From the NCBI GenBank assembly GCA_029570205.1, contig JAKQSI010000070.1, forward strand, positions 53,254 to 117,253: 64,000 nt of DNA, written 5' to 3'. The notes beneath the pieces were generated by a model. That model was not told the DNA's origin. It saw only the letters and a program-made list of their open reading frames with translations, and searched no databases. Source of the DNA: Candidatus Omnitrophota bacterium. Lineage in GTDB: Bacteria; Hinthialibacterota; Hinthialibacteria; Hinthialibacterales; JAKPRU01. Numbering within the stretch: position 1 is the first letter of the stretch; each line of letters begins with the position of its first letter. This document shows positions 5,541 to 55,901 of this stretch, piece by piece. The position numbers were made by a program, and so were the translations under genes.

Positions 5541-5560
5541 TAGATTGTCTCCTTCGTCGT

Positions 5561-6838: not shown

Positions 6839-6999
6839 TCTATTCCTCCATCGCCCGTATCGGTCTGTCCCGAAACGGAACATTTACCTGTAGCGATTTC
6901 ATTACCTTACGGAGAACATCAATCCGGGATTCCTGAGGTTCTGCCCGACTATTGTTACTCGAATCTCAACCACCGCGACAACCGTGGGCCGTTACCGGA

Positions 7000-9513: not shown

Positions 9514-9697
9514 GATTCCAGGTCCTCTCTCATCAGGTTTTCCCAAACGCTAACACACTCGCCATGGCCCGTAAAGACGGTGCAATGGCTTGAGGACAGG
9601 AAGAGGGGACTTGGCGACACTTTTCAACCCTTCTGCACGTTTCCCCAGTCGGTATACTCTGTTCAACTCCAGACTCACAGAGAGATTGAGAATAACC

Positions 9698-11542
9698 ATG
9701 AGAATGCCATTCCGTGAAATCCTTCGGGAACGGGTCCTCCTGGCCGATGGAGCGATGGGCACAGAGCTTTACGCCCGGGGCTTCTTTGTCAATCGTTCGT
9801 ATGATGAGTTAAACCTGACCTCGCCGGAAACCATCCTTGGGATTCATGAGCAATATGTTGAGGCGGGAGCGGAGATTCTCACAACCAACACATTCGGGGC
9901 TAATCGAATCCTCCTGAGCGGCTTCGGCCTTGCGGATCGAACCGTGGAGATCAACCGGCGCGGTGTGGAGCTGGCAAAACAAGCCGCCGGGGATGCCGCG
10001 TATATCGCCGGAAGCATAGGGCCGATTCTGGAGAAATTCTACCGTGAAAATGATGAACAAGGCATCCGGGATGCCGTTCAGGAACAATCTTCCGCATTGA
10101 TTGAAAACGGGGTGGATCTCATCCTTCTGGAGACATTTACCTCACCGGAACAGTTGGAGCAAGTTTATCGAGCTGTTCGAGCGACAAACGATGAGATTCC
10201 CATTATTCCGTCCGTTTCCCTGCGCATATTCGATGAATCCCAAAGTGTTTCGCCGGCACAGCTGGTGAAACGAGTCCGGGGGTGGGGATCACAGTTCCTG
10301 GGATTGAACTGCGGCGGTGGCCCGCCGGAAATGCTGGAAATCCTGCCTCTGGTGATCGGTGAAGCGGGGACCGATTTAAGAGTGTCGGTCATGCCGAACG
10401 CGGGCCTGCCCAAAAGCGTGGAGGGCCGGACCCTGTATCTCGCCTCGCCGGAATACATGGCGGAGTACACGCGCCGATTTGTGCAGATCGGCGCGGCGAT
10501 TGTCGGCGGATGCTGCGGAACCACGCCCCGTATGATTAAGGAAATGCGCTCGTTCCTGCGATCCGTCCAGCCCGGCAAGACGGTCTCCATCACCATGTTG
10601 GAGACCAGGGACTCGGACCAATCCATGCCGGCGATTCCCCTGGAGGAACGGACGGCGTTCGGGAAGATCCTCGGGAAGAAATTTGCGGTTTCCGTGGAGC
10701 TCGATCCCCCGAAAGGCATCGAGGCGGAAAAAGCGGTTCAGGGCGCAAAATTTCTTTATGAGCACGGAATCGACGCCGTGAATATCGCCGATGGTCCTCG
10801 CGCAACCGGACGAATGTCGCCGACTGCGCTGGCGACTTTGGTGAAGCGCGAGGTCCCCATTGAAACCATTATTCATGTCTGCTGTCGGGATCGGAACCTG
10901 CTCGCATTGCAGATGGATTTGATCAGCGCAAATGCCCTGGGACTCAAGAACCTGATGCTTATCACCGGCGATCCGCCGAAAATGGGCATATATCCCGATT
11001 CGACTGCCGTGTTCGATCTCGATTCTATCGGCCTGGTTACCTGCACAAATCTATTAAATCACGGGCTGGATTTCGCTCGGCGACCGTTGAACGGTCAAAC
11101 GTCGTTCGTCCTGGGGGTGGGGTGTAATCCGGGCGCGACAGACCTGGAGCGGGAGGTCCGCCGATATGAGCAGAAAGTGGAGGCCGGTGCGGAGTTTGTG
11201 TTCTCGCAACCGGTATATGACAATGCTCTTCTGGAGAATTTCCTCAGAAGGACTGCTCACGTTCGCGCTATTCCGTTTTTCGTTGGGATTCTTCCTTTGG
11301 CAAGCTATAAGAACGCGGAGTTTTTACACAATGAGGTCCCCGGGATGCAGGTCCCGGAGGAAATTCGCGAGCGGATGCGGCTGGCACAAACCAAAGAGGC
11401 CCAGCGCAACGAGGGTCTCCAGATTGCCGCCGAGGTTCTCCGTGAGGCCCGTCGCCTTCCGCAGGTCCGGGGCGCGTACATTTTCCCCCCATTCGGCAAG
11501 TACGAACGCATCCTGGATGTCCTCGAAATGGCCGGGGTGTAA
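9698..11542 (+). CDS. Bifunctional homocysteine S-methyltransferase domain / 5,10-methylenetetrahydrofolate reductase (YitJ-like)
   Basis: N-terminal Hcy-binding pterin-MT fold with GGCCGTTP motif; C-terminal MTHFR domain. Start chosen at MRMPFREIL, so the ORF-track N-terminal 36 aa are probably non-coding. Confidence 0.8.
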   Translation: MRMPFREILRERVLLADGAMGTELYARGFFVNRSYDELNLTSPETILGIHEQYVEAGAEILTTNTFGANRILLSGFGLADRTVEINRRGVELAKQAAGDAAYIAGSIGPILEKFYRENDEQGIRDAVQEQSSALIENGVDLILLETFTSPEQLEQVYRAVRATNDEIPIIPSVSLRIFDESQSVSPAQLVKRVRGWGSQFLGLNCGGGPPEMLEILPLVIGEAGTDLRVSVMPNAGLPKSVEGRTLYLASPEYMAEYTRRFVQIGAAIVGGCCGTTPRMIKEMRSFLRSVQPGKTVSITMLETRDSDQSMPAIPLEERTAFGKILGKKFAVSVELDPPKGIEAEKAVQGAKFLYEHGIDAVNIADGPRATGRMSPTALATLVKREVPIETIIHVCCRDRNLLALQMDLISANALGLKNLMLITGDPPKMGIYPDSTAVFDLDSIGLVTCTNLLNHGLDFARRPLNGQTSFVLGVGCNPGATDLEREVRRYEQKVEAGAEFVFSQPVYDNALLENFLRRTAHVRAIPFFVGILPLASYKNAEFLHNEVPGMQVPEEIRERMRLAQTKEAQRNEGLQIAAEVLREARRLPQVRGAYIFPPFGKYERILDVLEMAGV

Positions 11543-11619: not shown

Positions 11620-12585
11620 CTATTCCACCATCCCCAACAGCCACTCCCGGTAGTTCGCAAACATCTCAAAAGGAATATCGACCCGAACCGTATCATCCAG
11701 GCCGGGAATATACCGTCCGGACTCCAGCAGTGGCGGAACCTTGCGCTGCAATTCCCGGATCATCGCCTGCTCACCCTGACGCAGGGTGCGGTTATCAATC
11801 CCGCCCTGCAAAGCAAGATCAGGCCCATATTCTCTGCGGACTTGCAGGTAATCCACTCCCGCCGCACACGCCTGATCTATAAACATGCCGTTGATCCCGC
11901 AATCCATCCACAGTGGAATCAGCGGCAGAATATGGCCGCATGACCATGCAAATCGACGATGAATCCCATGTCTCTCCAATCGCGCGCAAATCCGTCGATA
12001 ACGCGGCTCCAGAAATCGGCGTGCCATTTCGGGCGAAATCACGAGACCGGAGTTGGAGGCAATCGGCTCATAGAGAATCGCATAGTCCGGTTTCACACCC
12101 GCACAAACCCGGTCGATCAGTTCCTCGAGGTATTCCGTATAGAAATCCAGAATGTACCGGACTCGTTCCGGTTCATCCATCAGGAAAAGAATGACCGGCA
12201 CAAAACTGCGGTAGTTGCGAATCCCCAGGATCTGAAACATTCCCTCCGGCCACGGCTCGAAACTGATCAGATGGTCCCGTTTCGCCGCTTCCTTGCACCA
12301 TACAGACCAATTTTCCGGGAACCGGCGTGGGTCGGCGGCATCGTACCAGGTTTCCGGCGAGGGCCAGATTGTGCGGGGATCCTCAGGAGCATCGAATTTC
12401 CGAACCTGGATGGGCACAGATTCATGCCGATCCAGGTCAAAAAACTCCTCCGGCGGACGCTTGTCGAGATATCCTTCGGCGCGCCACAACTCCACCGTAT
12501 CATCCGCAAACTTCGACTCAATCCGGGGCGGGCGATCCACCGGACGACCTTCAAGATATGCGGTAAATCTTTCGCGGGCGTTCAT
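11620..12585 (-). CDS. Uroporphyrinogen-decarboxylase (URO-D) family protein, MtaA/CmuA-like methyltransferase type (not HemE)
   Basis: URO-D fold motifs. Start chosen at MNARERFTAYLEGRPVDRPP by analogy with the paralog at 40236; the upstream 73 aa of the ORF-track call look non-coding. Confidence 0.7.
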   Translation of the reverse strand: MNARERFTAYLEGRPVDRPPRIESKFADDTVELWRAEGYLDKRPPEEFFDLDRHESVPIQVRKFDAPEDPRTIWPSPETWYDAADPRRFPENWSVWCKEAAKRDHLISFEPWPEGMFQILGIRNYRSFVPVILFLMDEPERVRYILDFYTEYLEELIDRVCAGVKPDYAILYEPIASNSGLVISPEMARRFLEPRYRRICARLERHGIHRRFAWSCGHILPLIPLWMDCGINGMFIDQACAAGVDYLQVRREYGPDLALQGGIDNRTLRQGEQAMIRELQRKVPPLLESGRYIPGLDDTVRVDIPFEMFANYREWLLGMVE

Positions 12586-12996
12586 ATTCTTCGCTATCTG
12601 TCTACCCCCCTTCAGCCCCTTTTCTTCGATTTTTAATTTTTTGATCCGGTTCACTCTGTCCGCTATTTTCGTGAAACATCCTTGACCCTGAAGATCGAAT
12701 GTGAGTAGATTGAGCTCGGTCATTCTATCGGAAAGAATCGCCCTTGAGGAGATGATCGTATGAACGAGTCCCTGTCCGCTTCTCCCGGGAGAGCGTCCTC
12801 GCATCCGTCATTCCGGGGAGCGAAGCGACGTGGGAATCTCGCAGTTGCAGCGCACAACATGAGATCGCCACGTCGCGGCCCTTCGCAGACTCAGGAGCCG
12901 CTCCTCGCAATGACGGAACAGGCATTGCTCCCAGGGGAAACCACGGTTCCTTCATCAAATCATCGGCATCGCCGGTCTGCCGCTCGCCATGATTCG

Positions 12997-14379
12997 ATGC
13001 GGTATCCATGGATCTTCGCGACATGTTGCCTGCTGATGGTTTGCGGCGTCTGCCGCGCCGAAAACTGGCCCACCTATCAGCATGATAACCGGAGAACCGC
13101 CATCACATCCGAACGTCTCCAGCCGCCGCTGATACACGCATGGACCTACACCCCCAATCAGGAACCGTGCCCCGCCTGGGATCAATCTCCCGCCAAGCAG
13201 GATTTCTGGCAGGAATTTTTTGACCTGCCTCCCAGGGTGACTTTCGACCGGGCTTATTATGTGGTTTCTGTAGAAGACGGCGTTTATTTCGGCTCATCCG
13301 CGGATGACCGGATTTATTGCCTGGATGCTTCCACGGGCAACGAACGCTGGTCCTATTGCACCGATGCGCCCGTGCGCCTGCCGCCGACTGTGGTGAACGG
13401 CAAACTCTATGCCGGTTCGGATGATGGAAATCTGTATTGCCTCCATGCGCAGGATGGCACGTTGATTTGGAAATACAGGCCTGCGGGAACAGATCGAAGA
13501 ATTATCGGGAATAAAAGAATGATCTCCCTCTGGCCGATCCGCTCCGGCGTTCTTGTGGAGGGAGATACCGCATACTGTGCCGCCGGGCTGTTTCCGCAAG
13601 AGGGCGCGTATCTGTGTGCGGTGGATGCAGCGCAAGGCATGGAAAAATGGAAACGGTCGATGGATGTTTCCCCGCAGGGCTGCCTTCTCGCCTCGACCTC
13701 ACGCCTCTATGTCCCCACCGGCAGGACCAACCCTGCCGCATTCGACCGCGCAACGGGGCAGGCGTTGGGAACCATAGAAGGGAACCGAACCGGCGGAACC
13801 TACGCGCTTATCAGCGAGGAGGCCCTGATCTTCGGTCCTGGAAGTACACGGCAGCTCGAGGCGCACGACCTGGAAACGAAAGACCACATTGCCTCATTCA
13901 ACGGCAATCATGTCCTTATCGCCGCCGATAGAGCCTACCTCCAATCCTCCGGTGAACTCCTGACCATCGACCGAAAAGGGTATTTCGATCGATCGAGAGA
14001 AAAAAGCAAATTGGCAGCCCGCAAGGAGGCCGTTCGAAAACTGATTAGAGAAAAGGGCGAAGACGCCAAAAATGAAAATGGAATCACCTTCAAAGAGGAA
14101 ACACAAATCCTGGACAAAAAAATCGCCGAGAAAAACGAAGAACTTCTTGCCTGTATCCTGTGGCGAAAGCCCTGTCCATACCCGTACAGCCTGATTCTTG
14201 CAGGGGATGTGCTTTATTCCGGCGGTGCGGGAAAAGTCGCCGCGTTCGGAACCACGGATGGAGAGGAAAGCTGGAGCGCTCCCGTCACCGGCAAGGCGTA
14301 TGGTTTGGCCGTGGCAAACGGGCGTCTGCTGGTCAGCACAGATCGCGGCGCCGTTCACTGCTTCACCCCGGCCCGATAA
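12997..14379 (+). CDS. Secreted PQQ-like beta-propeller repeat protein (BamB/YVTN-like) with a coiled-coil, K/E-rich insertion
   Basis: Signal peptide MRYPWIFATCCLLMVCGVCRA. Repeated motifs (DxxIYCLDAxTGxxxW; DGNLYCLHAQDGTLIW). The alternative ATG at 12760 has a GAGGAG RBS, but its 79-aa extension is low-complexity. Confidence 0.6.
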   Translation: MRYPWIFATCCLLMVCGVCRAENWPTYQHDNRRTAITSERLQPPLIHAWTYTPNQEPCPAWDQSPAKQDFWQEFFDLPPRVTFDRAYYVVSVEDGVYFGSSADDRIYCLDASTGNERWSYCTDAPVRLPPTVVNGKLYAGSDDGNLYCLHAQDGTLIWKYRPAGTDRRIIGNKRMISLWPIRSGVLVEGDTAYCAAGLFPQEGAYLCAVDAAQGMEKWKRSMDVSPQGCLLASTSRLYVPTGRTNPAAFDRATGQALGTIEGNRTGGTYALISEEALIFGPGSTRQLEAHDLETKDHIASFNGNHVLIAADRAYLQSSGELLTIDRKGYFDRSREKSKLAARKEAVRKLIREKGEDAKNENGITFKEETQILDKKIAEKNEELLACILWRKPCPYPYSLILAGDVLYSGGAGKVAAFGTTDGEESWSAPVTGKAYGLAVANGRLLVSTDRGAVHCFTPAR

Positions 14380-14497
14380 ACCAAGAAGGAGACATGCCCC
14401 CGTGATAAAAACGACACATTCAATATCCCGCGAAGGCGCTCCAGGGCGCTCCCTCTCCTTCCGGGAGAGGCTCGGGGCAACGGAATCTTGTCCTCCG

Positions 14498-16720
14498 ATG
14501 GTTGGAGTAAGGGTCTTTTCCGTCTTCCTTCTCACCCTCATTGTCTCAGCATCCCCGCTCTCTGCCCCCGACTCCCTCATTTCTGCAGGGCCATACATTC
14601 ATTTTGATCCTGACGGCGCTGTTTCCGTTCTATGGAAAACAACCCAGCCCGCCGACTCCATTGTAGAATTCGGAACCACGCAGGACCTCGGCACAAGGGT
14701 AGCCGATTCCCAACTGACCCGTGACCATACCATCCTCTTGCCGGAACTCCTGCCGGAGACGGATTACTTTTTCCGCGTTCGCAGCCACGCCGGAGAAACT
14801 GAATCGGTCAGCGACATCGAACCGTTCGATTCCACTTTCGAGCGCGTTCCATCCATTTCATGGGAGGAGCGTTCTCCATATCCGAAAGACGCCATGACCG
14901 CTGCGTGCATAGAGACGGCACAAAAGATCCTCCAGCAGACAGGCATCCGAAACGGGTATTGCCTGGTCCTTGGATTCGGCGATGGCCGACTGGCATATCA
15001 ACTTGCGGCACGTTCCAACCTTCGAATCATCGGGATAGACGACAATCCCAAAGCGGTCGCCGACGCGAGGGAGATATTGAAAAACACTGGGGCGTACGGG
15101 TCTCGGATCAGCGTCCATGAAGGCAATCTCAGTTCCCTTCCCTACAGCGACTATTTCGCAAACCTGATCGTCTCGGAAAGAATACTCGCCACAGGAAAGA
15201 TTTGTGGTTCTGCATCGGAATTGTTTCGCCTCCTTCGACCGGATGGCGGAACAGCGTATCTGGGCGCTCCTTCCGCGTCGGGCAAGACTCTGACCTCGTC
15301 GGCATTGAAAGCCTGGGCCGAACAGGGAGGTATTCAGGACTACTCCATCCAGGAAAAGGATGGACTCTGGCTGACTTTTCAACGCCCTGAACTGAACGGC
15401 GCAGGAGAGTGGACCCATACGTATGCCGAGCCGGGCAATACTGCATGTAGTAAAGACACCCGTATCAAACAGCCGACCGAAATCCTCTGGTTTGGCGGGC
15501 CGGGGCCGCGCCTGATGGTGGACCGCCATCACCGCCCCATGTCGTCGTTATATAAGAACGGATGTTCGTTCATACCGGCAAACAATCGGGTGATCGCCAT
15601 TGATGCCTATAACGGCGCACGGCTGTGGGACCTGGATGTTCCGCGATCTCGGCGAATCGGTATCATGCGAGACTGGGGCCAGATGTTCGTGACCGATGAG
15701 TACCTGTACATCGCCGCGAAAGACCGATGCACTGCTGTCGATGTTGCCACCGGCAAACCGTCTCTGTTCTTCGACACGCCTCAGCTGATCGATGGCGAAA
15801 GGCGGCTGTGGGGATATATCGCGGGTGTTGACAATCAGATATTCGGAAGCGGCAAAAAGGAAGGCGCATCACTGTACGAGCTCGCCAAGAGTACCATAGA
15901 AAACCTGATTGAAGGCGATTTCCGCCCCGGGATCACCAGCGATTATCTGTTCTCCCTGGATCGGTTCACCGGTCAAACGCTCTGGACATATCGAAACGGG
16001 GTCATTCTGAACAGCTGTCTGGCAATCGGCGATGGACAGCTGCATTTTGTCGAAAATCGCGGGGCCGCCGCGCTCAGCGACACGGACGGACGAATGAGCA
16101 TTCGAGAGTTCTGCACCGGAGACACATACGTGGTCGCTCTGGACGTAAAAACCGGCGAGAAAGTCTGGGAAAAACGGTTTGAGTTCCCGTTCGAGCAGGT
16201 CCTCTATCTCAGTTTCGCGGATCATATTCTGCTTTCGGTAGGATCGTTCAATGTGGGCAACCATGTGCATTACGGTCTGTTCACATTCGATGCCAAGACG
16301 GGAAAACCGATATGGAATCAGGAATTCGATTCCGGGGATGGTATTGGCGGTTCGCATGGGGAGCAATGGCAGCATCCGGTCATTATCGGCGACAGGATCT
16401 ATTCCAAGCCATACGCCTACAATCTGCATACCGGGGAGAAGAACTCCTTCTACCTCGACCGGGGGGGCAACGGTTGCGGCACAATATCCGGCTGCAATGC
16501 CTATCTCTTTGCGCGGGGAAGAAATCCGCGAATCTATCCTGCGGGAAACGAGAGAACCAGCGGGGAACCTCTGACCACCGTTACCCGTCCCGGGTGTTTC
16601 ATTAACATCATTCCGGCGGGTGGAATGGTGCTGATCCCGGAATCCAGTTCCGGCTGCACATGCGCATTCTCACTTCAGACCTCTGTGGCTCTGATTTCTA
16701 AAAACCGTGCCATAAACTGA
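14498..16720 (+). CDS. Secreted multidomain protein: purple-acid-phosphatase-N/FN3-like domain, then class I SAM-dependent methyltransferase domain, then PQQ-like beta-propeller
   Basis: Signal peptide MVGVRVFSVFLLTLIVSASPLSA; MTase motif LVLGFGDGRLAYQLA...IIGIDDN; C-terminal propeller repeats paralogous to 12997-14379. The ORF-track start at 14198 overlaps the upstream gene. Confidence 0.6.
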   Translation: MVGVRVFSVFLLTLIVSASPLSAPDSLISAGPYIHFDPDGAVSVLWKTTQPADSIVEFGTTQDLGTRVADSQLTRDHTILLPELLPETDYFFRVRSHAGETESVSDIEPFDSTFERVPSISWEERSPYPKDAMTAACIETAQKILQQTGIRNGYCLVLGFGDGRLAYQLAARSNLRIIGIDDNPKAVADAREILKNTGAYGSRISVHEGNLSSLPYSDYFANLIVSERILATGKICGSASELFRLLRPDGGTAYLGAPSASGKTLTSSALKAWAEQGGIQDYSIQEKDGLWLTFQRPELNGAGEWTHTYAEPGNTACSKDTRIKQPTEILWFGGPGPRLMVDRHHRPMSSLYKNGCSFIPANNRVIAIDAYNGARLWDLDVPRSRRIGIMRDWGQMFVTDEYLYIAAKDRCTAVDVATGKPSLFFDTPQLIDGERRLWGYIAGVDNQIFGSGKKEGASLYELAKSTIENLIEGDFRPGITSDYLFSLDRFTGQTLWTYRNGVILNSCLAIGDGQLHFVENRGAAALSDTDGRMSIREFCTGDTYVVALDVKTGEKVWEKRFEFPFEQVLYLSFADHILLSVGSFNVGNHVHYGLFTFDAKTGKPIWNQEFDSGDGIGGSHGEQWQHPVIIGDRIYSKPYAYNLHTGEKNSFYLDRGGNGCGTISGCNAYLFARGRNPRIYPAGNERTSGEPLTTVTRPGCFINIIPAGGMVLIPESSSGCTCAFSLQTSVALISKNRAIN

Positions 16721-16778
16721 TCCGCCCTTCTTTCTTTTTCTCCAATTTTTAATCCTCACAAAACACACGCAAAAAGGA

Positions 16779-16807
16779 TTGACAATTCATCCGATTCAAA
16801 GTACAAG
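16779..16807 (+). promoter_or_regulatory. Candidate promoter TTGACA-N17-TACAAG upstream of the DegT gene
   Basis: Perfect -35 hexamer, 17-nt spacer and a TACAAG -10-like box in an AT-richer intergenic region. The identical architecture recurs at 40078-40106. Confidence 0.35.
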
Positions 16808-16859
16808 TATATAGGAGATCAATTTGGTTTAATACATGTTTTTTAAGGAAGGTTTCGAC

Positions 16860-18134
16860 ATGACTGAGCGACTGGCGATTGAAGGTGGTCCGAAATGTCT
16901 GGAAGGCCCCCTGCCCCATTGGCCCTCCTTTGACGAAAAAACCCTGCAAGCGGTTCTGGAGCCTCTTAAGACGGGAAAAGTGAACTACTGGACCGGACCG
17001 AAAGGGATGGAATTCGAGAAGCGGTTCGCAGAGTGGAACGGCGTAAAATACGCGATCAGCACCACGAACGGAACCAGCGCCCTCCATACAGCGCTGTCTG
17101 GGCTTGGTATCGGGCCGGGAGATGAAGTTATCGTACCCAGTTATACATTCATTGCGTCTTCTTTTTCCATTGTCCAGGCAGGCGCAATCCCGCGTTTCGC
17201 AGATGTCAACCGGGAGGATCACTGCATCAGCGTGGAATCGGCAAAAAAACTGATTAACGAACGCACCAAAGCCATTATGGTGGTTCATCTTTATGGAAAT
17301 GTGGCGGATATGGACCCCATTCTGGCGCTGGCGAACAAGCACAACCTGTTCGTGATCGAGGACAATGCGGAAGCTTACGGCGGGGAATACAAAGGCAAGA
17401 AAACCGGCAGCTTGGGACATGTCGGCGCGTGCAGCTTCTGCCAGAACAAAACCTTCACAACGGGCGGCGAGGGCGGAATGGTTACCACGGATGATGAGGA
17501 AGTTGCCTGGCGTTGCCGCAGCTTCCGGGACCATGGATACGATGTCAAAGAGCGCCTGCGGCTGCTGGAACTGGAGCAGAAACTTCCGTACATCCATACC
17601 CGGCTCGGTTGGAACTACCGGATGACTGAAATGCAGTCTGTCATCGGCCTGTGCGAGCTGGACCGCATCGACTCGTGGAATATGCCGCGACGGCGGCGGA
17701 ACGCGCAGATTCTCATGGATGCCCTCCACGATGTTCCGCAAATCCTTTATTTGCCGGTGGATACACCCGAACGACGGAACGGCTGGTATGTGTTCCCGAT
17801 CACGCTCAAAATGGAGCGCATGAAATGCGATATCCAGGAGTTCCTGGAAGCGTTGGGGGCGGAAGGCGCTCCCTGCTGGAGGGTGTTCTGGCCTCAGTGC
17901 CACACCGAGCAGGCGTTTCGTCAACACAACGGATTCGGCAACACCGGATTCCCGTTTAGAAGCAAGGAATACACTAATCCCGCTTCGGTGGATTACGCCA
18001 CTGTGGAAGTCCCGAACGCGGAATGGCATCAGGATCGAACGTTCATCACCTTTATTTTCCCGACTTACGAAGAGTCACATATACAGGGAATCGCGAAAGC
18101 GATTCGCAAAGTGATCGCTGCTTATGCGAAATAG
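16860..18134 (+). CDS. DegT/DnrJ/EryC1/StrS-family PLP-dependent sugar/aminocyclitol aminotransferase
   Basis: Fold-type I aminotransferase motifs (NGTSALHTAL...PSYTF, EDNAEAYG); AAGGAAGG RBS 8 nt upstream of MTERLAIEGG. Confidence 0.85.
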   Translation: MTERLAIEGGPKCLEGPLPHWPSFDEKTLQAVLEPLKTGKVNYWTGPKGMEFEKRFAEWNGVKYAISTTNGTSALHTALSGLGIGPGDEVIVPSYTFIASSFSIVQAGAIPRFADVNREDHCISVESAKKLINERTKAIMVVHLYGNVADMDPILALANKHNLFVIEDNAEAYGGEYKGKKTGSLGHVGACSFCQNKTFTTGGEGGMVTTDDEEVAWRCRSFRDHGYDVKERLRLLELEQKLPYIHTRLGWNYRMTEMQSVIGLCELDRIDSWNMPRRRRNAQILMDALHDVPQILYLPVDTPERRNGWYVFPITLKMERMKCDIQEFLEALGAEGAPCWRVFWPQCHTEQAFRQHNGFGNTGFPFRSKEYTNPASVDYATVEVPNAEWHQDRTFITFIFPTYEESHIQGIAKAIRKVIAAYAK

Positions 18135-18164
18135 GTGATGGACAAGCCGCATGGATGAAGTGAA

Positions 18165-19559
18165 ATGAGTCAATATGAAGTCGGTTTTTCTGTGATCGAA
18201 TTCACTCCGCCGGTCGGCACACCGATCGGGGGGAATTTCCGCGCGGATTACGCCTCTCGTGGGGTGATTGAGCCTCTGCTGGCAAATGCCATGGTGGTGC
18301 GCGATGAAAACAGCGCCGTTGCCATGGTTTCCGCCGACCTGCTGACCGTCCCGGAAAGTATGATTGAGAAGATCCGGCAAAGGGTTTCCCAGCGATGTCC
18401 TTTGCCAAGTGAGAATATCCTCATCGCGGCGACCCACACCCACAGCGGACCGGCTACGCTGGAACTGACAGACGGCCATCTTGCTTCGGAAGAAATTCTT
18501 CAGAGTATTACCCAGTCCATCGCCGATGCCGTTGTGAAAGCCTACCGGGCAATGGAACCCTCCATTATTCGCCTCTCGCGATTTACGGAAGATTCCCTCG
18601 TATTCAATCGCCGATTACGGATGAAAGACGGCTCGGTGCGCATGAACTGGGAGAAGCTGAACCCGTCCGACATCGACGCTCCCCTCGGCCCGACCGACCC
18701 GGAAGGATTTATGGTTTCCGTATCGAATAACGGGCGGTTGCGGGGCTTGCTGATTAACTATGCCCTCCATCCGGCGGTCCTGGCCGGAGAGAACTGGAAC
18801 CTGGGACCGGACTGGCCGGGATTCCTCCGTGAAGCTCTCGCGCGATACGTCGGCGGAGATATCCCTATACTTTACTTCAACGGAACGCAGGGAAATATCA
18901 ATCACGTGGATGCCTGGGATCCGCTGCAGGGTCGCGGACTGAAAGAGGCTCAGCGAATCGGGTATGTGCTGGCAACTGCGGCGGTTTCTTCCTCATTTCA
19001 CATGCAGAGAATTGACGGTCCGGTGGAGGTTTCCGGTGAGGATCTTCTTATGAATCGTCGCCGGATTTCCACCCAGGCGGTCGCCGAGGCGGAAAAACAA
19101 CTGGCCGCTTTGGGAACCCTGACGGTGCAGGGACAGGAGGATGGAATGCCGGCCTGGTTTTTTGATAAAGAGCTCGTGGAACACGCGAAACGGCAGAACG
19201 AACCGGTTTCCCTGGAGGTGCAGACAATCCGAATCGGTGATATTGGTTTTGTCGGGTTCCCCGGTGAGTTCTTCGTGGAATACGGACTCGAACTGAAACG
19301 GCATTCCCCGGCTGAATTCACCATTCCCCTGGGGCTTGCCAATGGTGAGGTCGGATATGTCCCCACTCCCGAAGCCCTGGAACAGGGCGGGTATGAAGGG
19401 ATGACTTGGCGATACAACCAGTTGGAAGCAGATGCCGGTGAGAAAGTGGTCCATTCGGCGATTCGACAAATGGAAAGACTTTTCGAGAGAGGACGAGTTG
19501 TTCCGAGAGTTGCCGAAATCATGGACATCCCGCGACACGAATACAAAGTCGGCGCATAA
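18165..19559 (+). CDS. Neutral/alkaline ceramidase-like amidohydrolase (catalytic domain only; no signal peptide)
   Basis: IAATHTHSGP motif resembling the ceramidase zinc-site HTHSGP; ~460 aa, lacks the C-terminal tail domain of eukaryotic-type neutral ceramidases. Confidence 0.7.
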   Translation: MSQYEVGFSVIEFTPPVGTPIGGNFRADYASRGVIEPLLANAMVVRDENSAVAMVSADLLTVPESMIEKIRQRVSQRCPLPSENILIAATHTHSGPATLELTDGHLASEEILQSITQSIADAVVKAYRAMEPSIIRLSRFTEDSLVFNRRLRMKDGSVRMNWEKLNPSDIDAPLGPTDPEGFMVSVSNNGRLRGLLINYALHPAVLAGENWNLGPDWPGFLREALARYVGGDIPILYFNGTQGNINHVDAWDPLQGRGLKEAQRIGYVLATAAVSSSFHMQRIDGPVEVSGEDLLMNRRRISTQAVAEAEKQLAALGTLTVQGQEDGMPAWFFDKELVEHAKRQNEPVSLEVQTIRIGDIGFVGFPGEFFVEYGLELKRHSPAEFTIPLGLANGEVGYVPTPEALEQGGYEGMTWRYNQLEADAGEKVVHSAIRQMERLFERGRVVPRVAEIMDIPRHEYKVGA

Positions 19560-19641
19560 GTCCGTCTGATTCTTCTGTCCTTTTCGTTCTTGCGGTATCA
19601 TCTTTCAAGAATCCAACGACAAATTCCAGGAGTCGTTCACT

Positions 19642-20682
19642 ATGAAAACAAAATGGGGCGTTTTGGGGGCGGGCGGTATTGCACGTCGAAGAACAATCCC
19701 CGAAGGGATCCTGCGTGCATCGAACGCCGAGCTCGTAGCGGTGTATGACATCAACCCGGCGGCAAACCGGGCCGTGGCAAAAGAATTCGGCGCAACAGCC
19801 TGTGCCGGCGAAGAGGAATTGCTCAAAAGCGATTGCGATATTGTCTATGTTGCAACACCCGCCGATCAACATTATGCGCAGGTCGAACGCGCTGCGAAAG
19901 CGGGCAAACATATCCTCTGCGAAAAGCCCCTGGGAATGACCGTCGAGGAAGCCGAACAGATGGTTCTCCTGTGTCGTGATTGCGGCGTCAAACTGGGCGT
20001 CGGCTTCATGATGCGCTTTCATGCTTACCACCAAGCCGCGCTGAAGATGATCCGGGAGGGAGAACTGGGAACGCCGGTTCTGGGTCGCGCTCAACTTTCG
20101 TGCTGGTATCCACCGATTGAGGGAGCCTGGCGTCAGGACCCGGCGAAAGGTGGCGGCGGAAGCCTCATGGACATGGGCGGCCATTGCATTGACCTGCTGG
20201 AAATGTTCCTTGGACCCGCACGAAAAGTATCCTGCCTTACCGACAATCTGGTCCATGGATACGCAAGTGAGGATACGGCGGTCGTTCTGCTTGAGTTCGA
20301 ATCCGGCGCGAAAGGAATCGTCGATAACCTGTTCAATGTGCCCGATGCCGCTTCCCGCAATCGCCTTGAACTGTATGGCTCTCGCGGAAGCATTCTCGCT
20401 GAGGGAACCATCGGCCAGGGCGAGGCGGGCGATATGGTCGCTTACATCGAAGGGGAAGACAAAGGCTATGAGGCCCAACAGGAACGCGCGCAAAGCGGCG
20501 CGCAGCGCATCGCTCCGCCTCCGGTCAACATGTACCGGGCCGAGGTCGAGGCATTTGCGCAGGCTGTCCTGGACAATACCGATCCACCCGTGGACGGCGA
20601 AATCGGCCTATGGAGCCAGCGCGTCCTGTTTGCTTGCTACCGGTCTGCCGGAACAGGAAAGACTATCTCTCTCGGCGGATAG
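19642..20682 (+). CDS. Gfo/Idh/MocA family NAD(P)-dependent oxidoreductase (cytoplasmic)
   Basis: VLGAGGIARR Rossmann motif, CEKP motif; the large antisense ORF 19519-20493 is an artefact. Confidence 0.85.
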   Translation: MKTKWGVLGAGGIARRRTIPEGILRASNAELVAVYDINPAANRAVAKEFGATACAGEEELLKSDCDIVYVATPADQHYAQVERAAKAGKHILCEKPLGMTVEEAEQMVLLCRDCGVKLGVGFMMRFHAYHQAALKMIREGELGTPVLGRAQLSCWYPPIEGAWRQDPAKGGGGSLMDMGGHCIDLLEMFLGPARKVSCLTDNLVHGYASEDTAVVLLEFESGAKGIVDNLFNVPDAASRNRLELYGSRGSILAEGTIGQGEAGDMVAYIEGEDKGYEAQQERAQSGAQRIAPPPVNMYRAEVEAFAQAVLDNTDPPVDGEIGLWSQRVLFACYRSAGTGKTISLGG

Positions 20683-20974
20683 AGCCATTTAGCGAAACGG
20701 GCAGAGTCACCCCATGCACAACACTCCGCTCAGGTATTGCCCCGCCTGCCGCTTTGAAACTGACCCACCTTTTGATGAAGATTTGGGGATCCCAACCGGG
20801 GACGCTCGGAGGAAAGGATGCGGCGGAGATGAACCAAGTTCACGTGATACCGCATAAGGCGCTGAATCAGGGAGCGAGCATTTCTCAGGGACATTCCTTT
20901 ACCCGAGGTAAGCCCGGGGGAGCATACGTCGCCCGTCCGCGATATGGCCACGGTTCAGGATGTGATTGAAGAGG

Positions 20975-21982
20975 TTACAGGGGACAATATCCGCGCGCGG
21001 CTTTTACAGTATTTTCAGAAAGAATCGCCGCCGCCAGCAGTTCGATAAAAGCCGGATTGTCGTTAAGACAGGGGAGATAACAGACATTCGAAATGCGGAA
21101 TCGCGAGAACAGTCGTCTTGCGAAGAGTAACGTCTCTTCATTATCCGCGAAAAAACCGAACGGGAAGTAGATGAAATCCTTTATGCCTTTCTCCCGCATT
21201 TCGCGTACCGCTGTCTCCAGGGAGGGTGAAGTCCACTCACCGCCACGGCGGTGATTCAGCCAGCCGATGGAACTGCAATCGAAATGGGGGTGCAGTCTCG
21301 CAAGCAGTAGTTTCCCCAACGCATTCATGTCCGCAAATCCGCTATCTCGAATTCCCGGCGCCGGTGAGACCACCGTTCCATGTGCGCCCAGCAGCAAGCC
21401 CCGCCCTGTCGTACCGGTGAGATCCCAACCACGCCGTGTCATTGAACCTGTTACATATTCCACCATGACATCCGCGAGTTTGTCTATGTAAAGAATCGGA
21501 TCAATCCGTTTCACACAGTCGGGTACTCCCCCGCATTTCTCACGAAATGTCTCAAGGTCTTCGTCGCAAAGGCCGGAGGTGAAATCGGAATGCGGAACAT
21601 ACATGGGAACGACTATAACTCGATCCGCACCGGCCCCGAGAACGATGTGCAGCATCTCCGGAAGGGACAACGCAATGAATTGCCGCGCAACATGAACATG
21701 CCATTCCACCGAGGGGCATTTCTCCTTCAGGGATAACTGAAGAGATTTTCCCTGCCTTATGGTGATTTCATTTAAAGCCGATCGGTAGCCGTGCCTGCGC
21801 CACGACAGATATCGCGTAACAGCGCGCCATGCGGCAATCAGCGGAACAACGCGATCCGGAATCGGCGCGACTTTCCGGGTGATTCGCTTCAGAATTCTTT
21901 TGGAATAGTCATAGTGGACTCCAAGGGAGTTCTCCTCCGGCTCGCCATAGGTAACCAATATGACCGCGACTTGTCCGGACAT
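20975..21982 (-). CDS. hemH: Ferrochelatase (class II chelatase family)
   Basis: VILVTYGEP N-terminal motif and FPFGFFADNEETL C-terminal motif match the HemH family; last gene of the hemE-hemN-hemY-hemH array. Confidence 0.75.
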   Translation of the reverse strand: MSGQVAVILVTYGEPEENSLGVHYDYSKRILKRITRKVAPIPDRVVPLIAAWRAVTRYLSWRRHGYRSALNEITIRQGKSLQLSLKEKCPSVEWHVHVARQFIALSLPEMLHIVLGAGADRVIVVPMYVPHSDFTSGLCDEDLETFREKCGGVPDCVKRIDPILYIDKLADVMVEYVTGSMTRRGWDLTGTTGRGLLLGAHGTVVSPAPGIRDSGFADMNALGKLLLARLHPHFDCSSIGWLNHRRGGEWTSPSLETAVREMREKGIKDFIYFPFGFFADNEETLLFARRLFSRFRISNVCYLPCLNDNPAFIELLAAAILSENTVKAARGYCPL

Positions 21983-21985
21983 GAT

Positions 21986-23368
21986 TCAACTCAGATAGGA
22001 TAGTACCTTCAGGGCGGTTTTTTTGCCGTTGCGGATACAGTCGTTCACCGATACGCCATCAATATAATTTCCGGTAAGGAACAACCCCGGAATCTGCGCG
22101 CAAGCGTCAAACAGATTCCGCGTATTGTTGACATGGCCCAGGGGATACTGTGGGATGGCGCGGGGGTAACGAAATATCTTCTCTGATGTAAATGGGGCTT
22201 GCGCGCCGACTATCGTATGCAGGTCGGCTATCACCTGCGCGCGAAGATCGGTATCGGAAAGATCATACGCTCCGGGATCAAGGCCGCCGCCGACATAAAT
22301 AATAAAACAGTGGTAGTCAACCGGCGCGCGATGACTGAAAATACTCGAACTCCAGATTGTGCCCAATATCCGCGGGCCTTGCTTACGCGGAACCAGGTAG
22401 CCGAATCCGTCACAGGGGTGTTGGACCCGGCTCTTCGGAGTCCCCAGGCCGTAAACGGATAATCGGTTATAGGGCAGCGCCTCCAGAGCGCCACAGACTT
22501 GTGGGAGATATGGGCGAAGCAATTCGGGCAATGCGTAGCCGGGGACCGCAAGGACTAAAGCGTCGAATCGAGCGGGGATTTCCCCGGATTCCGCCGTCCG
22601 AACTCCGAATACTTTGTCGCCGAAAAAGAATTCCTTTACGGTTGCACCAAAATGGAGGCGATTGGGAAAGCGTTCGGTGATTTTCTCAGGCAGGGATCCC
22701 AGTCCGTCACGGAAGGAGCAGAGATTTCTGGAGCGTTGCTTTTCGCTCTGTTGCGAAGGACCTTTCTTCTTGTTCCCGCCCACAATCCTGCGAACACCGC
22801 CGACCAGGATACTGCCGTACTGACGTTCGAGGTCGTACAGCGCTGGAAAAATTGCCTGCAAACTGAGCTGTTCGGGGTCTCCCGCATACACGCCGGAGAC
22901 AAACGGCGTGACAACATGATCCAATAATTCCTCGCCGAATCGGCGTCGAATAAATGCAGCAATGCTCTCATCCTCCGGCGAGCGATTGCCTTGAATGAAC
23001 GGCTCTTTCAGGATACGCCATTTAGCGGATTGAGAAAGAATGCTCGTACTAATCAACCCGATGGGACCTGTCGGGACCTCATGGAGACGCCCGTTCAGAA
23101 ATATGTAACGGGACTTTGTGCGAAGCGGCTGTTTTTCGAGTTCCCCGGTTATCCCAAGCGAGTCACATAATTCAAGGGTCGCCGGGGTATTGTCCAATAA
23201 AGAGTTCGGCCCGGCTTCAAACAGAAATTCGTTTTCACGGACGCTGTGAATCGAGCCTCCAACGCGGTCGGATTGTTCGAATATCGTCACATCATGCCCG
23301 GCCTGTGCGATCCAGTGGGCCGCGCCAAGTCCTGAAATACCGGCTCCAATGACAGCGATGCGTTTCAT
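21986..23368 (-). CDS. hemY: Protoporphyrinogen/coproporphyrinogen oxidase, HemY/PgoX-type FAD amine oxidase
   Basis: [18 protein letters not shown] dinucleotide-binding start; start ATG overlaps the hemN stop (ATGA). The ORF-track N-terminal 91 aa are read-through of hemN sequence. Confidence 0.8.
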
Positions 23369-24774
23369 AGTGTTTGCGAGTACGTGGGCCTTTCTTTTCT
23401 TTCGGGGCGTGTCCGGGTCAAGTATGTGTCGAATGTCATGGCGATCGGACGGACAAGAATCTGACCCAGCGCGGTTACTCGAATGTCGTTCCCGTAATCG
23501 CGCTCCAGCAGTCCATCTTGAATATAGGGAGCGAGAAGGGGAATTTCCTTGTGAAAATAAGTCAGGAAGTCCTGATTCCAGGTTTGGCGGAATCGCGTAA
23601 AATCGACATGCAGATTGCACATCAGTTCCATGATAACCCAACGACGGATGCGATCATCGATTGTAAGTTCGATTCCGCGCTCAACGGGAAGAATCCGCTC
23701 GTTTAATCGTTGTTCGTATTGTTTCAGATTCTTTGTATTTTGCACATAGAGGGCGGGAAGGCTGCTGATGGCGGAAACGCCGAACGCATAGAGGTCCGTA
23801 CCGGCTCGTGTAGTGAATCCCATAAAATTGCGCTGCAAGGTTCCCTGACGCTGAGCCGTCGCGAGCTCGTCGTTTTCTTTTGAAAAATGATCCAGGCCGA
23901 TATAGACATAGCCATTCTGCGTAAATCGTTCGATCGCGGAACGAAGGATCGCGAAGCGTTCCTCGCTGGACGGAAGAGTACCGGGATCGATCCGCCGCTG
24001 ATAGGGCATTGTGGAGGGCAGATAACCGTAGGTGTAACACGCAATGCGATCCGGCGCAATGCGGATGATCTCGGAAAGTGTGGGGTCAAATGACTGTGCG
24101 GTCTGGTGAGGCAGGCCGCAAACAAGGTCGATATTGATGCTGTCGAAGCCGATTTGTCGGCAGAGACGGACAAAGTCGGCTGTCTGCTCCACAGTCTGGA
24201 TGCGTCCGATGGCTTCCTGTACCTGTAGCGAGAAATCCTGGACGCCGAAGGAAATTCGGTTGAAACCGAATTCGCGCAGGACGTGGAGATGTTCCTCCGT
24301 AGTAACTCTTACATCTACCTCAATGGATCGTTCGGCATCGGGCGCAATGGAAAATCGTTTTCCAATGTCAACAAATAATTTCTGTAGCTGTGACGGTGTC
24401 AAATGTGTGGGAGTCCCGCCGCCGAGATGTAACTGAATGACCGTGCGGTCGGGACGGAAGAGGGGGGCAATCAAATCCATTTCCATGGCGAGGAGATCGA
24501 CATAGCGTCCCGTTACTTCGTGCCTCGGTGTGACAATAACATTGCAGCCGCAGTAGTAGCAGCGTTTCGGACAGAATGGGAGATGAAAGTACAGGGAAAG
24601 AGGAGCCGGGGACCGGACGCGGTTCGTTTCGGCTATCTGTCGCCGATAGATCTCCGGGCCGACGGATTCGGTCCATTCGGGAGCCGTGGGATAGCTGGTA
24701 TATCGTGGCCCGCGCAATGTGTATTTGCGGATGAGATCGGTATGGACATCGGAGAATGTAACAGGATCAGCCAT
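23365..24774 (-). CDS. hemN: Oxygen-independent coproporphyrinogen III oxidase (radical SAM)
   Basis: [10 protein letters not shown] radical-SAM cysteine motif, HLGGGTPT; start MADPVTF, overlapping the hemE 3' end by 8 nt. Confidence 0.85.
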
Positions 24775-25807
24775 ATCTGTAGTTTCGAACCGTTTCGACA
24801 AATGCGTGGACACTCTCAACGCGGGTGTTCGGGAGAATCCCGTGTCCCAGGTTCGCGATGTGGCCGGTGCATCGGCTAAACTCGACAATCATCCTTCGGG
24901 TAAGATCGGCTACCGTTTCCGGGGGCGCAAACAGAGCGCAGGGATCAAGATTGCCCTGTACGGCACACCGGCCGCGCAGGGCGTCGTACGCATCGCGAAG
25001 GTTCGTGCGCCAATCCACGCTCAGAACGTCAATGTGGGACTCGGCTATAACCGGAAGGTACGGGGCGCAGCCGTTTACATACAGGATGACCGGTCGGCCT
25101 TCTTTCCGAACAGCCTCCGCGATAAGTTTCTGATAAGGCAGGGCGAATTCGCGGTAGTCGGAGAAGGTCAATATCCCGGCCCAGGTATCAAACACCTGAA
25201 CGATATCCGCACCCGCGTCGATTTGAATCCGGATATAACCGAGGACGGTTTCCGTGATGATTTCCAGGACGCGTTTGAGCAGATTCGGGTTTTGAAAGCG
25301 GAGGTCCTTAATCCGGATAAAGTTCTTGCTCATGCTTCCTTCCACCGCGTAGGCAGCCATGGTGAAGGGCGCGCCGATGAAACCCAGGATGGGAACATCG
25401 GGACCGGCCTGCGCCCGGATTCGCCGGATGGTGTCAAATACGGGCGGGGCCTCGTCGAATGTGGCCTTGTGGATGTCGGCGAGAATCTCCTCGGAGCGTA
25501 ACGGCGGTTGGACCTCGGGTCCGGTCTCGGTAAACAGCACGGAGAATCCCATGTTTTCCAGCGGGATCAGAATATCATTGAACACGATGATCCCGTCCAC
25601 ATCGAAAATCCTGCAAGGTTGAAGGGAGACCTCTGCGGCGAGATCCGGTGTTCTGCAGAGGTCGCTGAATGAATGATGCTGTTTGATCGCCCGGTACTCC
25701 GGAAGATACCGTCCGGCCTGGCGCATGAGCCATACAGGGGGACGGTCTACCGGCTCTCGGCGAATCGCCCGCAGAAAACGTTCTCGTTTGGTCAGGGATG
25801 TCAGCAC
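24767..25807 (-). CDS. hemE: Uroporphyrinogen decarboxylase
   Basis: RFLRAIRREPVDRPPVWLMRQAGRYLPEY N-terminal signature. Probable GTG start at 25805-25807 gives an E. coli-like N-terminus; the ORF-track start at 25903 is also GTG. Start uncertain. Confidence 0.85.
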   Translation of the reverse strand: MLTSLTKRERFLRAIRREPVDRPPVWLMRQAGRYLPEYRAIKQHHSFSDLCRTPDLAAEVSLQPCRIFDVDGIIVFNDILIPLENMGFSVLFTETGPEVQPPLRSEEILADIHKATFDEAPPVFDTIRRIRAQAGPDVPILGFIGAPFTMAAYAVEGSMSKNFIRIKDLRFQNPNLLKRVLEIITETVLGYIRIQIDAGADIVQVFDTWAGILTFSDYREFALPYQKLIAEAVRKEGRPVILYVNGCAPYLPVIAESHIDVLSVDWRTNLRDAYDALRGRCAVQGNLDPCALFAPPETVADLTRRMIVEFSRCTGHIANLGHGILPNTRVESVHAFVETVRNYRYG

Positions 25808-26309
25808 AGGAACGACTCTCTTGTTCTCCCTCTCCAGTCGGCAGAGAGGATCGGGGTGATGGGGGATGGACCCTCCGAATTCACATTTCCAGCCTATTGA
25901 CACAGGTTACCATTTTCGCGGCCTTTTCAACAGATTTCCGCAATCCGGGGGCGACGGAAGAAATGTCCCGCCCTCCCCTGGCGAAATGCACGGGAGGCTA
26001 CCGGGGTTCCGAGACGCGGCAGAATACGACGAAGCGCGGCGCCGGGCGCTGAAAGTTACTCCGTGGAGTGATCGAAGCCGCATGGACAACAACGAGAAAA
26101 ACCGGTGGACCGATTCGCCGGTATATCGCGACCACGACGTGGTTGGGGATTGCAAAGGACGTTTCTGGCAACCACACCGGGTTGCACTTACACGGGGATA
26201 TCTCCCTGGCCTGCTTCTACGGGACAGACCCACGTGCCTGCCTTCATCGCCTTCTCCCTCTCCTCCCGTTGCAGTCAGAGCAAGAAAAGGGGCCGGCGAT
26301 GCGAGGAAA

Positions 26310-40106: not shown

Positions 40107-40235
40107 AAGAGGTCCTGGTGGCGAATTGGCCATGTTACAACCCTCACCCCAACATTTTCTTCCGGTGGGAGAGGGACGCATCCGGGTGGGTGTCGGACTC
40201 GCCCGTACTTTTGACACAGCAGAGTGTGCGCCGCC

Positions 40236-55624: not shown

Positions 55625-55768
55625 AAACCAACCGATCGCAGGATCGGAAAAGGAGGTTGAAAATTCGCGAAATGACGTAGTTGTAAGTCCTGGAAATTCC
55701 GAGTACAATAGCCGTCGGGGTCGGAGGAAAGGACTCCTTCGGCTGGGGTCGAGGGTGTTACCCGTGCT

Positions 55769-55776
55769 ATCCGATA
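55769..55776 (+). promoter_or_regulatory. Possible sigma-28 -10 element TCCGATAA, 133 nt upstream of flagellin 2
   Basis: 7/8 match to GCCGATAA; the context CCGATAAAGG is identical to 52093-52102. No convincing -35. Confidence 0.25.
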
Positions 55777-55901
55777 AAGGTGTCATTCGGCAAGGGCGAC
55801 GCGTGCGTCGCCCCTACCGGACGATACCAGGCATCGCTCCCGGAACAGGGGGCATGGTCGGAAGTGGAATAATCAACACAAACACAGCATCACGGAGGAA
55901 G

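Follow-up and report, generated by a model that had tools for sequence, protein, structure and literature searches.

The Gfo/Idh/MocA oxidoreductases and the DegT-type aminotransferases form an established oxidize-then-transaminate couple, examples of which are WbpB/WbpE, GnnA/GnnB, NtdC/NtdA and the pairing of inositol dehydrogenase with inosose aminotransferase. A third family considered here shares the fold of the neutral ceramidases, and ceramidases are the sole characterized members of that fold. Removal of an N-acetyl group followed by removal of the amine has been described for the ong pathway of Pseudoalteromonas, in which N-acetyl-D-glucosaminic acid (GlcNAc1A) is processed by the deacetylase OngB, the pyridoxal 5′-phosphate (PLP)-dependent deaminase OngC and the RidA protein OngD (PMC9537276). 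Here we describe a cluster of one gene from each of these three families, DegT, a ceramidase-like amidohydrolase (Cer) and Gfo, in a 64,000-nucleotide (nt) stretch of DNA from a Candidatus Omnitrophota bacterium (contig JAKQSI010000070.1, positions 53,254 to 117,253; hereafter the window). We propose, as a reading with about an even chance of being correct, that this trio is a cytoplasmic catabolic module that would deacylate, transaminate and reduce an imported N-acylated amino sugar or a closely similar amino-polyol.

The trio and its leader occupy the following positions, with lengths in amino acids (aa) and genes taken from open reading frame (ORF) calls.

16770-16859, plus strand: 5′ untranslated/promoter region travelling with the trio; homology with a related locus (L001) begins at 16770
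16860-18134, plus strand: DegT aminotransferase, 424 aa; an alternative upstream ATG lies at 16836
18165-19559, plus strand: Cer, a predicted cytoplasmic single-domain neutral-ceramidase-fold Zn-amidohydrolase, 464 aa, proposed N-deacylase; ORF call and Pfam
19642-20682, plus strand: Gfo/Idh/MocA NAD(P)-dependent sugar oxidoreductase, 346 aa; ORF call and Pfam

All three genes are co-directional and are separated by gaps of 30 nt (DegT–Cer) and 82 nt (Cer–Gfo). An initial annotation of this DNA had given the same order, a shared orientation and the same second gap, with a first gap of 31 nt that is corrected here to 30, and its three family assignments are borne out by the Pfam matches described below. 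The DegT start at 16860 is preceded by a Shine-Dalgarno-like AGGAAGG motif and gives the same 424-aa product as the gene call in a relative with a 90%-identical ceramidase-like protein, while the Gfo ATG has an AGGAG motif 11 nt before it. Both intergenic gaps were scanned, and neither terminator-like nor promoter-like sites were present in them. Judged by eye, none of the three products carries a hydrophobic signal-like N-terminus. The trio is isolated in the window, with beta-propeller genes upstream and convergent heme genes downstream, and it is a real operon-like unit. The leader is AT-rich; the sequence TTGACA at 16779-16784 was considered as a promoter and rejected, as a correctly spaced −10 element is absent and a promoter scan called none.

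In terms of conservation, a metagenome-assembled genome (MAG) labelled Candidatus Omnitrophota (L011) is collinear with the window at 95-96% nt identity. The homology of locus L001, at 86% nt identity, is confined to 16770-20713 of the window, which is exactly the trio and its leader; its flanks are unrelated, and the trio therefore moves as one block. The DegT–Cer–Gfo order is kept in L006 and L007 (Cer 56% identical), in Planctomycetales (L012), Planctomycetota (L014) and Verrucomicrobiota (L020), and also in an unclassified MAG (L038) and two metagenome contigs (L108 and L170), with rearranged versions in L008 and L025. The initial annotation had proposed to look for conserved gene order in relatives, and the trio is indeed conserved there. 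Approximately 14 distinct loci, Planctomycetales, Planctomycetota and Verrucomicrobiota among them, contain a Cer with a score of 300 bits or more; DegT adjoins it in 9 of these and Gfo in 7. Cer homologs of greater divergence lie next to DegT genes that are likewise more divergent, Bathyarchaeota (L029) among them, and the pairwise identities of Cer and DegT correlate across 13 loci (Mantel r 0.59, p 0.002).

The neighborhood was also viewed from the side of the aminotransferase, using a profile of DegT orthologs against metagenome contigs, which returned 80 loci at 68-83% identity. Directly after DegT, the 60 loci with downstream sequence carry the orthologous Gfo in 49 cases, Cer in 3 and neither in 8, and 16 of the 80 have a Cer-like ORF at some position in the locus. 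On these counts DegT–Gfo is the conserved core and Cer an optional member. The place of Cer in the unit, as the initial annotation had it, thus holds in that the trio is conserved across lineages, but Cer is not a fixed partner and is present at a minority of DegT–Gfo loci. About 15 of the 80 loci extend to DegT–Gfo–(URO-D-like)–Gfo2, where URO-D-like denotes a weak resemblance to uroporphyrinogen decarboxylase (L101 and L123 are among the loci with such a gene). Weak URO-D-like proteins recur with the DegT–Gfo system, and the window has two, at 40224-41327 (plus strand) and 11620-12804 (minus strand), distinct from hemE; the extension itself was sought in the window and rejected, these ORFs scoring only 30-34 bits to it.

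The same data bear on whether the three genes might be unrelated and adjacent by chance in a genome rich in Gfo paralogs. The window alone holds three Gfo/Idh/MocA genes, so a Gfo neighbor is not rare. Set against this are the mobility of the trio as a block between different flanks, its constant order in several phyla, the frequency of DegT–Gfo adjacency and the correlated divergence of DegT and Cer, which together effectively refute chance adjacency and leave it a negligible probability.

With respect to the middle gene, Cer matches Pfam Ceramidase_alk (PF04734) at 57 bits (cut-off 32.1, E 1.8e-15), in a match that spans residues 4-216 only. A profile built from 30 Cer homologs gave two matches only among solved proteins, the Pseudomonas neutral ceramidase PaCD (2ZWS, E 7e-33) and human neutral ceramidase (4WGK, E 3e-30). 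Mapping of the active site onto the Pseudomonas enzyme, a check suggested by the initial annotation, located all seven PaCD residues: H97, H99, R160, H204, E411, Y448 and Y460 align to H91, H93, R149, H202, E368, Y398 and Y410 of Cer. These PaCD positions are its Zn ligands and catalytic residues, and each Cer counterpart is either invariant or conserved in at least 90% of the 30 homologs. Because this catalytic set is complete and conserved, Cer is predicted to be a competent Zn-amidohydrolase of the ceramidase fold.

In other respects Cer departs from the ceramidases. Pfam finds PF04734 only in its 464 aa, the C-terminal ceramidase domain (PF17048) being absent; the structured part of its model ends near residue 441, and the solved ceramidases have 646-688 aa. 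Its score against the neutral-ceramidase equivalog NF041649 of NCBIfam, 35.7 bits, does not reach the cut-off of 1200. The N-terminus (MSQYEVGFSVIEFTPP) has no hydrophobic export signal by eye, and Cer is predicted to be cytoplasmic, in keeping with the earlier description of the middle protein as signal-less and limited to the catalytic domain. Cer belongs to a branch of single-domain proteins of approximately 430-470 aa that numbers 15,523 representatives of 50%-identity clusters at E <= 1e-3 and 1,098 at E <= 1e-30; no functional work on this short branch was found in the searched literature. Polar or charged residues that are invariant in, and specific to, the short branch (R26, D28, R32, D155, N161, D178, N210, D216, N244, N246, H247, R264, K378 and E411) weakly suggest, from the alignment, a polar ligand. 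Cer-like domains also occur inside very large multidomain proteins (P0146, 1942 aa; P0225, 2098 aa; P0226, 1256 aa; P0256, 1065 aa). About six tandem Cer-like ORFs lie at 9839-18244 of L027, a Bryobacterales chromosome (OZ253444.1), and tandem pairs in L021, L022, L024, L054, L064, L069 and L075, arrays that indicate paralog expansion in the family.

Kinship with the ceramidases raises the alternative that the substrate of Cer is a lipid, either ceramide or a different N-acyl lipid (an N-acylated aminolipid, for example, or a lipid A precursor of the GlcN3N type), with DegT and Gfo degrading or building a sphingoid or amino-polyol head. The complete ceramidase catalytic set, in a fold whose characterized members all act on ceramide, would fit such an activity. 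The predicted cytoplasmic location, the missing C-terminal domain, the equivalog score far below cut-off and, weakly, the branch-specific polar residues argue the other way, as do the neighbor censuses given below, in which carbohydrate families dominate. We assign this alternative a very small likelihood, and the sphingoid-like substrate offered among others by the initial annotation is without contextual support.

The first gene matches Pfam DegT_DnrJ_EryC1 (PF01041) at 326 bits (cut-off 19.8, E 3.9e-97). Its PLP lysine, K197 within the motif SFCQNK, is invariant across 8 orthologs and makes the enzyme Lys-type, as opposed to the His of the dehydratase members. The best solved relatives are 7L7X, the Pcryo_0638 aminotransferase (266 bits), perosamine synthases and L-glutamine:2-deoxy-scyllo-inosose aminotransferases (194-196 bits). 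Similarity to WbpE (147 bits) and NtdA (135 bits) is at the family level only, the latter well under the top matches. None of the NCBIfam equivalogs PseC, LegC, ArnB, RfbH, WecE and DesI was reached, the best being PseC at 222.8 against a cut-off of 423.5.

The third gene matches PF01408, PF22725 and PF02894, with E values of 1e-25 to 1e-30 for the N- and C-terminal domains, and carries the motifs EKP (K95) and D177-x3-H181 together with D36 after beta-2. Its best solved relatives are 1,5-anhydro-D-fructose reductase (AFR; 2GLX, 147 bits over the full length) and aldose-aldose oxidoreductase (5A02), both of which use free sugars that carry no nucleotide. Scores fall below the equivalog cut-offs for iolG (143.4 versus 355) and for the archaeal UDP-GlcNAc 3-dehydrogenase (90.1 versus 450). 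The likeness to WbpB/WbpE or to an inositol dehydrogenase pair drawn by the initial annotation does not extend to orthology, as every NCBIfam equivalog score lies far under its cut-off. A reading of the pair as GnnA/GnnB, making lipid A GlcN3N, was likewise rejected, there being no lpx context and no ortholog-level scores.

The order of the proposed reactions is suggested by what replaces what at related loci. In L131 and L169 a PIG-L/LmbE N-deacetylase directly follows DegT–Gfo with gaps of 0-12 nt, the latter locus reading UROD–MFS–DegT–Gfo–PIG-L (MFS, major facilitator superfamily), and in L125 DegT and a weak Gfo are followed by a sulfatase with the C-domain of N-sulphoglucosamine sulphohydrolase (sulfamidase). 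Conversely, in L004 and L016, where Cer occurs without DegT, the next gene encodes a class-III aminotransferase, and a 38%-identical Cer homolog in Caldalkalibacillus uzonensis (L091) has nearby a D-Ser-dehydratase-like PLP enzyme, RidA, an M20 peptidase, an ABC transporter and ROK. Amine-unmasking enzymes thus vary around a constant DegT–Gfo and amine-removing enzymes around a constant Cer, which suggests that deacylation comes first and removal of the amine second. This two-way replacement pattern is the main argument for the deacylate-first order.

These loci also bear on a reading in which Cer leaves the sugar alone and serves as an omega-amidase (on 2-oxoglutaramate) or glutaminase in support of DegT. 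Some DegT enzymes are glutamine-dependent, the DegT of the trio is related to glutamine-using inosose aminotransferases, and the tight adjacency and co-divergence of DegT and Cer would fit such a helper as well. In L006 (10532-12771) and L007 (5051-7290), however, a class-III aminotransferase directly after DegT–Cer–Gfo overlaps by 4 nt a CN_hydrolase, a member of the canonical omega-amidase superfamily, so that the operon holds both this enzyme and Cer; the two overlapping genes may themselves be a transaminase/omega-amidase couple. In addition, most DegT–Gfo loci are without Cer, and the PIG-L enzyme and the sulfatase that take the corresponding position suggest that the sugar itself is acted upon. 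Cer-like genes are also present at loci with no aminotransferase, where their neighbors are FGGY kinases, SIS proteins and GntR/UTRA regulators. A helper role consequently seems improbable to us.

The wider neighborhoods are of carbohydrate type. Individual loci include glycoside hydrolase (GH) genes of families GH9 (L003) and GH5 (L093), an AraC regulator (L008) and an MFS sugar transporter (L169); L131 has GH92 and a heparinase II/III-like lyase, and L006 and L007 have a GH-like TIM-barrel protein and F5/8C, with a DUF4838 gene closing the extended DegT–Cer–Gfo cluster. Two censuses of 125 neighbors each were drawn up from crude longest-ORF gene calls and the 25 commonest Pfam families of each were tabulated, so that the counts are indicative and not exhaustive.

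Around Cer genes: DegT 10, FGGY kinase 6, Gfo 6, Cer 6, Amidohydro_1 5, GntR 5 (UTRA 3), AP_endonuc_2, MFS, AraC, SIS, DeoR
Around DegT–Gfo pairs: additional Gfo 16, URO-D 7, AP_endonuc_2, ROK, sulfatase, PIG-L, GH5, AKR, AraC

Among the 25 commonest families of either census (250 neighbors in all) there is no glycosyltransferase, lpx, nucleotidyltransferase or lipid-metabolism family, and no cyclase (2-deoxy-scyllo-inosose synthase), N-acetyltransferase or phosphatase family. The flanks of the trio in the window similarly contain no glycosyltransferase, N-acetyltransferase, lpx, cyclase, nucleotidyltransferase or phosphatase family.

It is at this point that a biosynthetic function has to be weighed, and the initial annotation had favored that direction, with the pair making amino sugars or aminocyclitols. 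The substrate of such a pathway would be a sugar, sugar nucleotide or inositol; Gfo would oxidize one of its hydroxyls, DegT would aminate the ketone, and Cer would trim an N-acetyl group from a precursor as BtrD, MshB and LpxC do. The established use of the Gfo and DegT families as a couple speaks for it, as do the best solved relatives of DegT, all of them biosynthetic, and the NAD-type Asp36 of Gfo, which suits an oxidative role; PIG-L deacetylases, moreover, also take part in aminoglycoside, mycothiol and bacillithiol biosynthesis. The companion families expected of biosynthesis are nonetheless missing from the commonest neighbors and from the window flanks, and the genes that do appear, namely GHs, a polysaccharide lyase, sulfatases, MFS and other transporters, and sugar-type regulators such as AraC and ROK, point to catabolism. 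The WbpE, NtdA, archaeal UDP-GlcNAc 3-dehydrogenase and IolG scores are at the family level only, and a deacylase that is optional suits an extension of substrate range better than an obligatory step. We therefore regard biosynthesis as unlikely.

Our preferred reading remains the catabolic one. In a first step Cer would hydrolyze the N-acyl group, most likely N-acetyl, of an imported amino sugar to give the free amine; the DegT-type PLP aminotransferase would then move this amine to a 2-oxo acid, leaving a keto-sugar; and the Gfo/Idh/MocA enzyme would reduce the keto group, whereupon the carbon skeleton could join ordinary sugar metabolism. DegT–Gfo would be the evolutionary core and Cer an optional front-end that opens this core to N-acylated substrates. 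The suggestion of the initial annotation that Cer is an N-deacylase of an amino-sugar-like molecule is, judging from sequence and context, the most plausible assignment. Its remark that the combination is not seen in described pathways also agrees with the searched literature, in which we found no description of ceramidase-fold, DegT and Gfo enzymes together, nor of DegT/Gfo catabolism.

Several observations weigh against this proposal. Characterized DegT enzymes are mostly biosynthetic, acting on nucleoside-diphosphate keto-sugars or inososes, and an Asp after beta-2, as in Gfo, is typical of NAD+-linked dehydrogenases and would be as compatible with an initial oxidation as with a reduction. 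Gfo divergence is uncorrelated with that of either Cer or DegT in Mantel tests, albeit on a small set (n=9) of stop-to-stop ORFs that makes the result uninformative. A Cer-like gene and PIG-L occur together in L131, so that the two are not strictly interchangeable, and the neighbor censuses are based on crude gene calls and small counts, with two loci each for PIG-L and the sulfatase. In the window no transporter, kinase or regulator adjoins the trio. Finally, 7L7X, the best solved relative of DegT, is a biosynthetic UDP-sugar aminotransferase (PMC8040287).

Two further claims may be attached to the proposal, each with its own degree of doubt. The chemistry might concretely run from a hexosamine through a 2-keto-aldose (osone) to a hexose, which would fit the nearest solved relatives of Gfo; we hold this version to be doubtful. 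The other is tentative, and possible without being probable: the large cytoplasmic single-domain branch would consist of amino-sugar N-deacylases, and the trio would provide a phosphorylation-independent route by which glycan-derived N-acyl hexosamines are converted to neutral hexoses through deacylation, transamination to a keto-sugar such as an osone, and reduction. A catabolic pathway of this kind for amino sugars is not known from the literature.

If correct, these assignments would supply a first function for an orphan family of more than 15,000 clusters at 50% identity, widespread across Planctomycetota, Verrucomicrobiota, Acidobacteriota, Bacillota, Chloroflexota and some archaea, whose members annotation pipelines mis-name ‘ceramidase’. 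They would also define a transaminase-based catabolism of amino sugars, unlike the canonical kinase, deacetylase and deaminase (NagK/NagA/NagB) route, and would mean that ‘biosynthetic’ DegT aminotransferases run in reverse in glycan degraders, with a bearing on the turnover of carbon and nitrogen from amino-sugar polymers in sediments and soils. Should the module instead be biosynthetic, many uncultured lineages would be making an amino sugar or aminocyclitol that is not yet known.

Outside the operon, the window contains a second Cer-like gene with two neighbors of related interest.

40224-41327, plus strand: URO-D-like ORF, tail-to-tail with the Cer paralog
41463-42728, minus strand: probably exported distant Cer paralog, 421 aa from MKKYII (BLASTP, motifs)
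42968-43861, minus strand: xylose-isomerase-like TIM-barrel ORF adjoining the Cer paralog; its N-terminus (MDRRNFLKYTGMAGLAMT) resembles a twin-arginine export signal

The paralog is 25% identical to Cer (BLASTP E 1e-24), retains the motifs HTHS/H/E/Y/Y and begins with a hydrophobic, signal-like stretch (MKKYIIVSAVIVVLFSCLSAFA); its Pfam score of 24 bits is under the cut-off. A secreted paralog at these coordinates had been predicted by the initial annotation, and the gene and its signal-like N-terminus are present, with the correction that it lies on the minus strand.

Among the remaining genes of the window, the one directly upstream of the trio (14198-16720, plus strand) encodes an 840-aa fusion of a purple-acid-phosphatase-N-like segment, an S-adenosylmethionine (SAM) methyltransferase and a PQQ-like beta-propeller, and is preceded by a gene for a 539-aa beta-propeller protein (12760-14379, plus strand). 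Convergent with the trio, a heme run on the minus strand (20975-25903) comprises ferrochelatase, protoporphyrinogen oxidase, a HemN-like radical-SAM protein and the true uroporphyrinogen decarboxylase (hemE, 24767-25903). A four-gene co-directional run, all on the minus strand, consists of DUF4838 with a GH20b/GH67N-like N-domain (7000-9546), a Gfo/Idh/MocA gene of C2 type (5561-6883), a HEAT-repeat gene (3510-5573) and an enolase-superfamily (MR_MLE) gene (2371-3474). The DUF4838/GH20b-like, Gfo and enolase-superfamily genes of this run are 7-14 kb upstream of the trio, and the occurrence of DUF4838 both here and in the L006/L007 cluster may reflect a functional link to the trio. A homocysteine S-methyltransferase domain is fused to methylenetetrahydrofolate reductase at 9590-11542 (plus strand). 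Farther along, tandem giant flagellins of 801 and 852 aa (53219-55624 and 55755-58313, both plus strand) have Flagellin_N/Flagellin_C ends and an unassigned central insert of approximately 550 residues each.

Set beside the known systems, Cer shares the fold of the catalytic N-terminal domain and the catalytic residues of the neutral ceramidases (P. aeruginosa PaCD, 2ZWS/2ZXC; human ASAH2, 4WGK), but it is only 20% identical to them, has 464 aa against approximately 650-690, and is without the C-terminal beta-sandwich, signal peptide or anchor. Its genomic context is one of carbohydrate and not lipid, and it falls in a separate, very large branch. The oxidize-then-transaminate couples have in common with the trio two enzyme families whose genes are adjacent and co-directional; they differ in their companion N-acetyltransferase, phosphatase, glycosyltransferase, lpx or cyclase genes, which are absent around the trio, and in direction, which the context of the trio suggests to be the reverse. 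Specifically, the trio does not group with the kanosamine NtdABC type, as it includes no HAD phosphatase and its similarity to NtdA is low.

With respect to the individual steps, AFR from Sinorhizobium (2GLX) offers a remote likeness. AFR reduces 2-keto-aldoses (osones) to manno-aldoses, and the window Gfo has Lys, Asp and His at K95, D177 and H181 that match the catalytic K94, D176 and H180 of AFR. AFR is NADPH-specific with a Ser after beta-2, where the window Gfo has Asp36, and no link between AFR and an aminotransferase is known. The PIG-L/LmbE enzymes (MshB, BshB, BtrD and archaeal diacetylchitobiose deacetylase) catalyze a Zn-dependent hydrolysis of sugar N-acetyl groups like that proposed for Cer, on an unrelated fold. 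The ong pathway follows the same logic of cytoplasmic deacetylation and then PLP-dependent amine removal that we propose for the trio, and the OngC-like, RidA and transporter genes around the Caldalkalibacillus Cer homolog resemble the ong set (PMC9537276); it differs in that OngB belongs to the D-aminoacylase (amidohydrolase) family, the amine is lost by elimination and not transamination, and there is no Gfo reductase. Against this background the enzyme families of the trio are ordinary, and what is new, with no earlier description of either element found, is that an amidase of the ceramidase fold has been recruited to an operon of carbohydrate type, together with a conserved, catabolic-looking DegT–Gfo core.

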